Shown in pieces: positions 27,001-30,000 of a DNA stretch of 39,253 nucleotides (within the stretch, counting starts at the first letter, position 1; the number at the start of each line of letters is the position of its first letter). The stretch comes from Oligoflexia bacterium (lineage in GTDB: Bacteria; Bdellovibrionota; Bdellovibrionia; JABDDW01): positions 1 to 39,253 of the forward strand of contig JAYTHU010000051.1 of assembly GCA_043732305.1 (NCBI GenBank), written 5' to 3'. The position numbers were made by a program.

Positions 27001-30000
27001 AGTTCAAATCCCATCTTGCGATAGAAATCAAAAAGGTTCGTCCATAAAATAGCAAAATCACAGTTCTGATTTTTAATTTCTTCTAGACAATCTTTAATCA
27101 CATTTTGACTTAGACCTTGATTGCGATGTTTTTCATTTGTAACAACACTGCCCAGGCATCCAACTTTAAATATACCGCGGCGGGTTTTGACAATGATGGG
27201 TTTGATAACCGCGTGACTTAGAATCTCCGAAGACTCCTTGTCTTTGATGATGCGAAAATTATGAAGATTTGCTAGGTTGAATACCGTGGGATATTCTTCT
27301 GTCACTGACCACTCCGTATTTTCACGCAAGTTCTCATTTAAAAACTTAACAATGTCTGTGTATTCATTTGTTGTCGGGGCTCGAGGTCCTTCCATAGAAA
27401 CTCATCCTTTTCCGGCATTTCACCTACCTTTAATAGTAGTCGAAATATGTATTTTTCAATACTCGGCCAAGGTCTAGTTCGCTCTGTCCAGACCCGCGTC
27501 ATTTTTTATGGAATTAAGTAAGGTGCGACAGCCATTTTGTGGGCGGTCGACAAGACTATCGATTAACTTTTGAGCCTCAGCGTTGTTTTGAGTGTAAGTT
27601 TGATCGGGATCTCGCATGTGTTTTATGAGTGGTGAGAGATCGGGAAAAGTGCTCTCGATTCTACTGGGACGATTGATGTATTTCGCACGTTCGATCATTT
27701 CATTAAATGCTTCTTGGGGAAGCTGAAGATGGTTCACCATTTCAGTCAATTGGTAGAGATAGATTCGCATAGCCAGATTGAGCTTGGGTTCTTTCAAGTA
27801 TCTATTGGCAAACGCCGAGCGGCGTCTAAAATCTTTCCGTTTATTGGCATTCCAGTTCTGAGAGGGTGTGAGAACCGAGATCCAAGCGTTCATTCTCTTT
27901 TCAGGATCCATAAATGAGACGCGAATAGATTCTCGAAATACCTTTCTCATGTCAAAAGCAGAGGGCTTGATTTCGCCACCATAAAATTTCACCGTCCTCT
28001 CCGCGCTTGTCTGTAGACTATTGGCGGCGATGTAAAACAGGCGTTTGTCTTTGGCGGACAGTGATTTTATTTGGATTGAGGTCAGTCCGAGTCGCTCTAA
28101 CCAGAGCTCCGTGAGTACCTTTTTAAACTGGAGATCAAATTCAGAGTAAAGCCAATTCAAATTTAACGGTGTGACACCGGGATAGGAAGGCAATTCCATA
28201 AAATGGGTAACCAGACCCATGTAATTTGAGATAACCATTGACTGATCTTTCACAAACAGTTGGCCATTCATGTAGGCCATCTCGCCGTGATGAGCGTCCA
28301 TCGCCATGAAAGTCCCGTAGTCGATCGGCATTCCGGCAGTGGTTTGATTTCCAGCTGTTGGCGATCCATGAACAAATGCAAGATCAACAAAGTAGGCGGC
28401 TTGAGTCGCTAGAGCTTTGTTGAGATCCACCAAATATTTTTCAACGTGGCTTGTGTCAACTGCCGTGGTGAGTGGAAGTCCCAGATTGCGTTTGACGGCG
28501 TAATTGAAAAAAATTTTAAAATTTTCGGGCGATTGATGATGGAACTCGAATTGTGAGATTCGAGTTTGGTTTCCTACTCTCACTGTAAGGGAGGCATTTT
28601 CCAATTTCTCACTAAAAGGATCAACCTTCTTGAGAGGCAATTCAAAAACGGCGAGATCAACCACCGCGTTGACTCCATTACCATCAACGGCTTGGCTCGC
28701 GATAAAACTTCTGGCTCCTTCGGACATTGTTTGGAGACCATCACTGTATTGAAGATTGGTTATATTTCCTTTTGCGTCTTTCTCAAAGGGCTTTGCGAGC
28801 GGAGTGCGACCAACACCCTTTAGGGAAACATCAAGATAAATGGTTTGTCCATTCGCTAACGGCAGAATGATTTCGCCACTCCATGTGACTCGACCGTCCC
28901 CCAGGGAACCTGTATTTTCAGTCGCGCCGTCCGGTCTAAATTCTGTCGAATAAGTGGAGAAAAAAAATCGTTCGGCTTTTTCCTCTGTCGTGACCATCAT
29001 CGCGAAATTTCCGAGCAACAGTTTTTGCAGATGTGTTTCATCAAGAGCGGTGAGTCCCAATTTTTCTGCGAGTTTGTGATTAAATAAAACAAGTCTTGCG
29101 CCCTCTATGTGCGCGACTGGAACGGGGACTGAAAAGATATCGCCGAGATCTCGAAATGAACTTTTGCCAGATGAAGCTTTCGCCCAGCCATTTGCATTTG
29201 AGATCGAGGATAATAAAAGAATGCTCGCCGCTAAGGCTGATGTTAGACATTTAAATAGACATAGACATATTTTTTTCAAAATAATTTACCTCGAACAAAG
29301 TCTGGTTCGATTTAAGTTTCACAATTGAAATTTCCGTCAGCTATTGCAGGTTCGATGCCAGCACTTCTGTCACAAACTAAAGGCTGGGAAAATCGACAGA
29401 GACAAAAGTCCTGTAAAAAAAATATTCATTTTTATTCGAATAACACTTAAGAAAATAACGGCAGCTCCGAATAAGTAAGTGTCAGGAATGGTTCCTGGCA
29501 AAGGTCCCTGGGGGCATGAAGCCTCGCAGTTCTCAAGATGAGAACTGAGACATTCAAGGAGGATGATATGGGCTTAAGAATTAACACAAACGTGGCGTCA
29601 ATCAATGCGCAACGTAACTTGATGGGCACAAAACTCGCTCATGATAAAAGCTTGGAGCGTTTGTCTTCAGGTTTCAGAATCAATCGCGCCGGCGATGATG
29701 CTGCAGGTTTAGCAATCAGCGAAAGCTTGAGAGCTCAGATCCGCGGTCTCAAACAAGCTTCTCGAAATGCGCAGGACGGTATCAGTCTGGTGCAAGTCGC
29801 AGAAGGTGGACTCAACGAAATTTCCTCAATCATGATCAGATTGCGCGAGCTTGGAGTGCAAGCAGCTTCTGATACGATCGGGCACACCGAACGTCAATTC
29901 CTAAACGTTGAGTATGAGCAGATGCTCCAAGAAATTCAACGTATCGCAGACGGTACAGAGTTTAACTCTACTCCGCTGTTGAACGGAACTGGCGCCGTCT

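Follow-up and report, generated by a model that had tools for sequence, protein, structure and literature searches.

The closest described relatives of P0001, the protein studied here, are the SelO/YdiU proteins (PF02696; PDB 6eac, 6k20, 6lna), which have the fold and the equivalents of the phosphate and metal ligands in common with it. The description of the YdiU site in 10.1101/692707 names R87, K107, D119, G120, R170, R177, N247 and D256 as ligands and proposes D246 as the general base, mutation of which abolishes self-AMPylation. The same role is given to D252 and to D208 of the nidovirus NiRAN domain in PMC8017715, which also describes YdiU E130A as still active. NiRAN is like SelO in transferring NMP, in its case to an atypical acceptor, but is viral and retains its base Asp. 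Compared with SelO/YdiU, P0001 lacks the base Asp, appears to have its alphaC Glu shifted by one turn, carries a predicted signal peptide and does not end in C-x-x-COOH.

Two further systems are useful for comparison. MchC/MceJ is introduced in PMC3281104 as a remote SelO subfamily working with an HlyC-like acyltransferase, and the maturation outlined in PMC7680869 joins a siderophore to the carboxylate of the microcin's C-terminal serine, with the attachment made by mceIJ. We apply the name MchC to the E. coli gene flanked by mchB and the acyltransferase gene, going by this position and by PMC3281104; RefSeq lists it as hypothetical. As in the P0001 clade, its base site is not Asp, and it is partnered with an acyl-handling enzyme. 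MchC is, however, cytoplasmic and encoded in a microcin cluster with the HlyC-like acyltransferase, whereas P0001 has no such partner and falls on a separate branch. SidJ, a Legionella pseudokinase glutamylase, is described as forming an acyl-adenylate with SelO-like flipped ATP (10.1101/2021.04.13.439722). The likeness lies in this kinase-like site with its flipped ATP, but the fold match to P0001 is weak (E 2e-3, TM 0.17) and SidJ is said to need calmodulin and a second pocket.

Placement of the gene in the SelO fold family

The window, meaning the whole stretch of 39,253 nucleotides that was analysed, comes from a member of the Bdellovibrionota and encodes P0001 on the minus strand.

27474..29279, minus strand: P0001, a SelO-fold protein of 601 aa belonging to a base-less clade (ORF, Pfam, AlphaFold, Foldseek)
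29288..29292, minus strand: ribosome-binding site GAGGT, 8 nt 5' of the TTG start (read from the sequence)
27531..28004, minus strand: mainly helical C-terminal region past the Pfam match, confidently modelled (AlphaFold)

The ORF at 27474-29279 had been assigned to Pfam SelO at E 4e-13, and we obtained E 3.6e-13 over residues 40-425, with a score of 49.5 against a cut-off of 22.8; the NCBIfam SelO/YdiU score is 70.8 bits against a cut-off of 431. An AlphaFold2 model built from 22 sequences reached a pLDDT of 87.1 and a pTM of 0.88. Its first nine Foldseek matches are all YdiU/SelO structures (E 6e-17 to 6e-16; TM 0.70-0.77 of the target) at only 16-17% identity, with P. syringae SelO at TM 0.77, and the model indicates that P0001 has the SelO kinase-like fold.

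The initial annotation placed the gene (g00651) alongside an ordinary SelO and counted 21 close relatives, and both statements hold: a canonical copy lies at C181:13042-14511, and the homologue search scored 7999 candidates and returned 103 matches, of which 21 are close relatives at E<=5e-49, 81 are canonical SelO and one is the query itself. A far SelO relative, g02943, is encoded at C231:72480-74273. By the clade we mean a branch of 69 rows (SH-aLRT 93) in a 158-row tree of core-covering rows; 13 of these rows form a clade of their own, with support of 100/99, in a more careful tree of 33 rows. The phylogeny supports a query clade distinct from canonical SelO. The earlier description of a distinct exported clade stands for its separateness and for most members, but not for a branch in Methylococcales, which lacks both signal peptide and tag and whose genes often show translational coupling with the one upstream.

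Database entries label the clade proteins as 'protein adenylyltransferase SelO family', and an ESM Atlas search returned only SelO or unnamed clusters. In the literature searched, which takes in few subscription papers, exported or base-less Bdellovibrionota SelO and the Cys tag described below are undescribed. The P0001 clade appears to be an undescribed variant of the SelO/MchC fold family.

The active site of the clade

The residues discussed here are spread over seven short segments.

28941..28955, minus strand: T-Y-S-T-E loop (clade consensus T-R-Y-x-D), with E113 as candidate migrated base and Ser in place of the clade Tyr
28890..28904, minus strand: LGDGR, R130 corresponding to YdiU R87 (alignment)
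28803..28823, minus strand: LKGVGRT, K154 corresponding to YdiU K107 (alignment)
28707..28745, minus strand: DG adenine loop and alphaC helix, with D180/G181 retained and S191 in place of the canonical Glu (alignment, model)
28560..28580, minus strand: R234 and R240, corresponding to the gamma-phosphate residues YdiU R170/R177 (alignment)
28347..28370, minus strand: catalytic loop HGSPTAGN, with G310 at the general-base Asp site and the metal ligand N311 kept
28314..28322, minus strand: DYG, D320 corresponding to the metal ligand YdiU D256 (alignment)

The motifs had been described as intact, which is not the case for the catalytic loop or the alphaC helix. HGSPTAGN aligns without gaps to HGVMNTDN (canonical HGxxNTDN) of YdiU and 6eac, placing Gly310 at the base Asp, and Ser191 takes the place of the alphaC Glu. 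N-x-D-N is kept in 81/81 canonical SelO; across the 69 clade rows the base site holds Gly 57 times, Ser 11 times and Asp once, in a long-branch fragment. The alphaC change probably matters less, given that YdiU E130A is still active. Ser occupies that site in 58/69 clade rows, and the position one turn before it on the modelled helix is Glu in 66/69 (E187 here).

The remainder of the site is kept. In YdiU numbering, the 69 clade rows retain R87 in 67, K107 in 68, D119 in 65, D256 in 68, and G120, R170, R177 and N247 in all, so that triphosphate and metal ligands are 94-100% conserved across the clade. P0001 itself has all four phosphate-burying basic residues (R130, K154, R234, R240) and both metal ligands (N311, D320). 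It departs from the clade at two conserved sites, Y111S (Tyr in 65/69) and H243Q (His in 64/69). Of the earlier name, SelO-type AMPylase, the SelO fold survives, while the AMPylase part is weakened because the Asp that deprotonates the acceptor is absent in 68/69 members and its mutation abolishes YdiU self-AMPylation. A hydroxyl acceptor needs a base, and a carboxylate or phosphate does not. Since the base Asp is absent and the rest of the site is kept, a different acceptor is predicted, and the clade likely carries out chemistry other than that of SelO.

Before turning to such an acceptor, two other explanations of this site need to be weighed. The first is that the clade is an ordinary AMPylase or UMPylase whose base has migrated, most plausibly to D/E113 of the T-R-Y-x-D loop. 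Position 113 is Asp in 58/69 clade rows, Glu in the query and Gly in canonical SelO, so that 86% of the clade has an acid there. The loop corresponds in the alignment to YdiU Y71-F76, a segment bordering the acceptor site in the structure as described in 10.1101/692707, and all other active-site residues are kept. YdiU tolerates losing its alphaC Glu according to the mutant data of PMC8017715, and catalytic residues are known to migrate in pseudokinases, in the cases given in PMC10211241. An acid at this position is, however, also found in a base-keeping branch (P0215), is absent in the base-less MchC and g02943, and is not Asp in 11/69 clade rows, and we consider a migrated base unlikely, if deserving of attention. 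The second explanation is a catalytically dead nucleotide binder, such as a sensor, scaffold or decoy, or simply a decaying copy. Loss of the base, the two further changes at clade-conserved residues and the patchy, accessory occurrence of the gene would all fit. We regard this as very improbable, as both metal ligands and the four phosphate-binding basic residues are near-invariant at a mean identity of 27-32%, and the case of MchC illustrates that ligation can require a base-less member.

MchC, proposed acyl transfer and the gene neighbourhood

At the base site E. coli MchC has a Ser and no Asp, in a loop reading T-S-P-S-N...D-F-N. A profile of the P0001 clade detects MchC (E 2.6e-7; hhalign 93%) and the canonical SelO profile does not, and the MchC sequence and clade consensus have F-x-x-R-Y, H-x-x-G and R-x-A-H in common. 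MceIJ is reported to need ATP and to act through an adenylate intermediate. By analogy, we take MchC to be a closer chemical precedent for the clade than SelO. The two are nevertheless separate branches in the tree, at 100/99 each, with MchC no nearer the clade than other branches are. Searches of the genome and of the clade loci yielded no MchD-like gene, and no microcin precursor, exporter or HlyC-like acyltransferase was found adjoining the gene.

The comparison also changes the placement of g02943, which the initial annotation had put in the same exported clade with its motifs intact. It also lacks the base Asp, reads YGSGR and SGGITASN at the motif positions, has no Pfam match and scores only E 1e-3 with NCBIfam YdiU. 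It matches MchC at E 2e-13, and in the 33-row tree, where branches are long, the two group together at 100/99 outside the query clade; it belongs to the MchC branch.

We tentatively propose, at somewhat short of an even chance, that P0001 is an exported nucleotidyltransferase that binds ATP flipped, as SelO does, and makes an acyl-adenylate by moving AMP onto a carboxylate, in a reaction coupled to a serine hydrolase. P0001 would be exported by the Sec route and, together with other Cys-tagged proteins, be carried to a compartment where ATP is present, the simplest candidate being the prey cytoplasm. There the NTP would bind in the flipped pose and PPi would be released as a carboxylate attacks, giving an acyl-adenylate in place of protein-hydroxyl AMPylation; no base would be needed, because the carboxylate is already ionised. 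The acyl group would then pass to an alcohol or amine to give an ester or amide, and the serine hydrolase that neighbours the gene at many loci could act as transacylase or eraser, much as the acyltransferase MchD accompanies MchC. Several observations weigh against this proposal: the clade acid at position 113 (D in 58/69, E here) could replace the base, the query is altered at Y111S and H243Q, MchC is not nearer the clade in the tree, and no MchD-like gene turned up in the genome or at the clade loci.

The gene lies between two neighbours that we place outside the system.

26280..27395, minus strand: conserved GNAT gene, one flank of the insertion site
29538..30413, plus strand: flagellin, the other flank of the insertion site

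The GNAT gene and flagellin directly adjoin each other in 3/4 same-family genomes examined, and the P0001 gene is carried by 0/5. It is an insertion between the two, and an operon with either was rejected on the same counts. A scan for promoters and terminators gave chance-level results. The gene is rare, occurring in 9/390, 7/127 and 4/238 genomes of three classes (E<=1e-60), with the match of one of those nine genomes falling in a neighbouring 930-aa group. Phage copies were found in 0/22 candidate stretches, and 0/12 proteins matched PADLOC anti-phage models. Beside L119 and near L006/L007 lies selD/mnmH; this is not general and was given no weight.

There is no alpha/beta-hydrolase beside the window copy, and nine profile matches lie elsewhere in the genome. 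Across the clade, such a hydrolase is the next gene at 13/27 distinct loci (35 loci, dereplicated at 85% identity), some of whose contigs end before any neighbour; this count is partly circular because the profiles were built from the first such esterase. The hydrolases belong to five families less than 40% identical to one another and are placed upstream, downstream, convergent or divergent. One of four later clade loci added a sixth family, PF00756 (E 4e-23, by Pfam alone). Including the window, the total is 14/32 distinct loci, split into 4/18 exported and 10/14 methylococcal-type loci, and the six families have an intact G-x-S-x-G. A hydrolase of the beta-lactamase family neighbours the gene at L011/L013.

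As controls, 0/65 canonical SelO loci had a hydrolase by profile, and among 310 ORFs flanking canonical SelO 0/56 of those bearing G-x-S-x-G were hydrolases by Pfam, although these loci are mostly Burkholderiales and not independent. With a background of 9 (measured) or 25 (assumed) hydrolases per 2800 genes, the p value for five families turning up in 28 loci is 1e-6 to 1e-4. Signal-peptide status agrees in 12/14 enzyme-hydrolase pairs, an agreement confounded by lineage. Another SelO-like family in the phylum, cytoplasmic and separate from this clade, keeps D-N and also has a serine hydrolase directly downstream, at 11/16 distinct loci (peptidase S51 at eight, Abhydrolase_2 at three), so the association with hydrolases does not depend on the base having been lost. 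For the acyl-adenylate proposal, this family counts against it, as does the presence of a hydrolase at only 4/18 exported loci and none in the window.

The same neighbours suggest that the clade could instead AMPylate serine hydrolases, either its own partner or those of prey, with AMP on the catalytic Ser shutting the esterase off. Here too no base would be needed, because the Ser-His-Asp triad of the target activates the Ser. This would account for six alpha/beta-hydrolase families with G-x-S-x-G plus the beta-lactamase-family hydrolase, and for the concordant signal-peptide status of 12/14 pairs. AMPylation of ABHD6, and of cathepsin B at its catalytic-site cysteines, is among the cases covered in PMC8097203. 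We nonetheless think it a rather improbable reading: a single site would need to accommodate unrelated hydrolase surfaces, neighbours of this kind also occur beside the Asp-keeping family, and the concordance of pairs is confounded by lineage.

Predicted export, the C-terminal Cys and a possible role in prey

Both ends of P0001 carry features that canonical SelO does not share.

29193..29279, minus strand: predicted Sec signal peptide, residues 1-29, ending S-N-A (heuristic)
27477..27530, minus strand: C-terminal tag C-R-T-L-L..., a short helix with pLDDT under 50

All signal peptides were called by our own heuristic and not by SignalP. The conserved mature region begins at W32, and C584, 18 residues from the end, is the sole Cys of the mature chain. 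The earlier counts were reproduced: 13/21 close relatives pass the heuristic, each of them having a Cys among its final 30 residues, and 0/81 canonical SelO pass. The two groups cannot be told apart by a C-terminal Cys alone, as 80/81 canonical SelO end in C-x-x, namely C-G-T/C-S-S, a tail that P0001 does not have. Among clade proteins of at least 540 aa (n=61), 45 have signal and terminal Cys, 10 the Cys only, three the signal only and three neither. In 54 tagged proteins taken from this set, the last Cys is found 4-21 residues before the C-terminus, 38 have Phe or Leu at position +4, and 41 have no other Cys beyond residue 35.

The tail appears to extend beyond this family. In this genome C-x-x-x-[LF] within the last 25 residues occurs in 23/442 predicted exported soluble proteins and 24/1083 others (p 0.005), and in 3-11 of the 442 exported proteins at four internal windows, a modest enrichment at exported C-termini. 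Judged by sequence, the Cys tail is probably a genome-wide tag common to unrelated exported proteins. It has zero matches to Pfam or NCBIfam models. MYXO-CTERM and its kin likewise place an invariant Cys close to the C-terminus of proteins that are exported, but there a membrane helix follows that Cys, and a basic tail is part of the signal; the P0001-clade tail is 4-21 residues long and amphipathic, and no membrane helix was found after C584.

Some relatives carry an additional domain. Five of them had been credited with PF01467; a Pfam match was obtained in 4/21, and the fifth (P0013) is decayed, with no HxGH and no match. HxGH is present in the NadD-like domain of 9/10 fusion sequences inspected, and the Cys tail follows the domain where it is inserted, in line with the claim that fusion members keep the Cys at the C-end. 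A clade with occasional NadD-like fusion is supported. These fusions raise the idea of NAD chemistry, either NMN + ATP <-> NAD or NAD hydrolysis via the terminal Cys, with the NadD-like domain recycling PPi + NAD. A phosphate acceptor needs no base, and SelO is described as hydrolysing NAD with its C-terminal Cys/Sec (PMC13391479, PMC13443136). However, most clade members have no fusion, and the Cys moves behind the inserted domain, lying 4-21 residues from the end (54 proteins) in a segment with pLDDT under 50. The tail is also common to unrelated exported proteins and missing in the methylococcal branch, and we find NAD chemistry highly doubtful.

The other tagged proteins bear on where P0001 might act. 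Twenty were chosen by eye, and seven have clear Pfam domains: PLD, peptidases M48, M3 and S41, a J-domain with HPD, an AAA ATPase and an ABC1 kinase. The periplasm is without ATP and DnaK. Since the J-domain, AAA and ABC1-kinase proteins and the two SelO-folds need one or the other, we infer delivery into prey, which for Cys-tagged P0001 we judge to be an evenly balanced possibility. Sec-dependent secretion of enzymes into the prey cytoplasm is among the routes discussed in PMC2797640. A broader picture would have Bdellovibrionota use the Sec signal and the single-Cys tag to send cytoplasm-type enzymes into prey, with the clade, as a kinase-fold acyl-adenylate ligase, writing a reversible acyl modification and a serine-hydrolase eraser or transacylase paired to it six times independently; we hold this to be improbable as a whole.

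The kinase fold has repeatedly been a source of new chemistry, including AMPylation, glutamylation, RNAylation and NAD hydrolysis. The clade described here is labelled as SelO adenylyltransferase yet is without the residue that this reaction needs, which ties it to the MchC/MceJ step. A further question is where an NTP-dependent enzyme that is exported would meet ATP. P0001 may act inside prey cells, and the common Cys tag provides a testable handle on protein delivery by predatory bacteria into the prey cytoplasm.

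SelO-like relatives of the clade gene

The second paralogue of the source genome, g02943, belongs to the MchC (microcin maturase) branch, and the MchD partner, an HlyC-like acyltransferase, is absent for it.

G000:C231:72480-74273 (L081:6481-8274), plus strand in L081: g02943, MchC-branch protein, predicted exported and Cys-tagged

Two such domains stand in tandem in P0236. Two groups of larger proteins lack the general-base Asp. In the first (P0182 and P0204 with ten relatives; 720-1020 aa), a base-less SelO domain with N-P-T-L-G-N lies between an N-terminal kinase-like region and a further C-terminal region, and none of these proteins has a signal peptide. 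The second (P0154, P0158, P0159, P0162, P0163 and locus L203; 930-1000 aa) is predicted to be exported and is Cys-tagged, with an unannotated C-terminal domain.

A cytoplasmic SelO-like family of ~610 aa is common to many genomes of the phylum (L095-L112, L123), with a W-x-D-W-D-G-D-N loop, and lies in an operon with peptidase S51 in 8 of 16 loci and with Abhydrolase_2 in 3 of 16. A phmmer search found no member in the source genome.

L123:5922-7751, minus strand: example of this cytoplasmic family

Gene neighbourhoods

Elsewhere, one Bdellovibrionota locus (L119:4509-6580) has selD and mnmH directly 3′ of the clade gene, and in one methylococcal locus (L006:991-4316) they lie one gene away from it. 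In a single case, an RNase Z-like metallo-hydrolase precedes an esterase/SelO-like pair (L137/L140:2423-3343); RNase Z is reported to be the SelO deAMPylase.

An integrated conjugative element probably has its border at the contig start.

23-6304: TraG/VirD4-like coupling protein and large serine recombinase

Further along the contig, at 10150-15630, three genes with FHA domains form a single run with a PP2C-type phosphatase gene and a TadC-like one.

In another genome, G229, the orthologue of the flanking GNAT gene (L155:2998-4186) is interrupted by a frameshift or stop.

Other Cys-tagged proteins

Three further proteins of the source genome combine a predicted signal peptide with the Cys tag.

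C120:9116-10048 (L169): J-domain protein
C148:696-5402 (L170): M48-ABC1 kinase fusion
C31:36832-39783 (L177): AAA ATPase

We regard these as candidates for cargo that an as yet undescribed tag would send to the prey cytoplasm.
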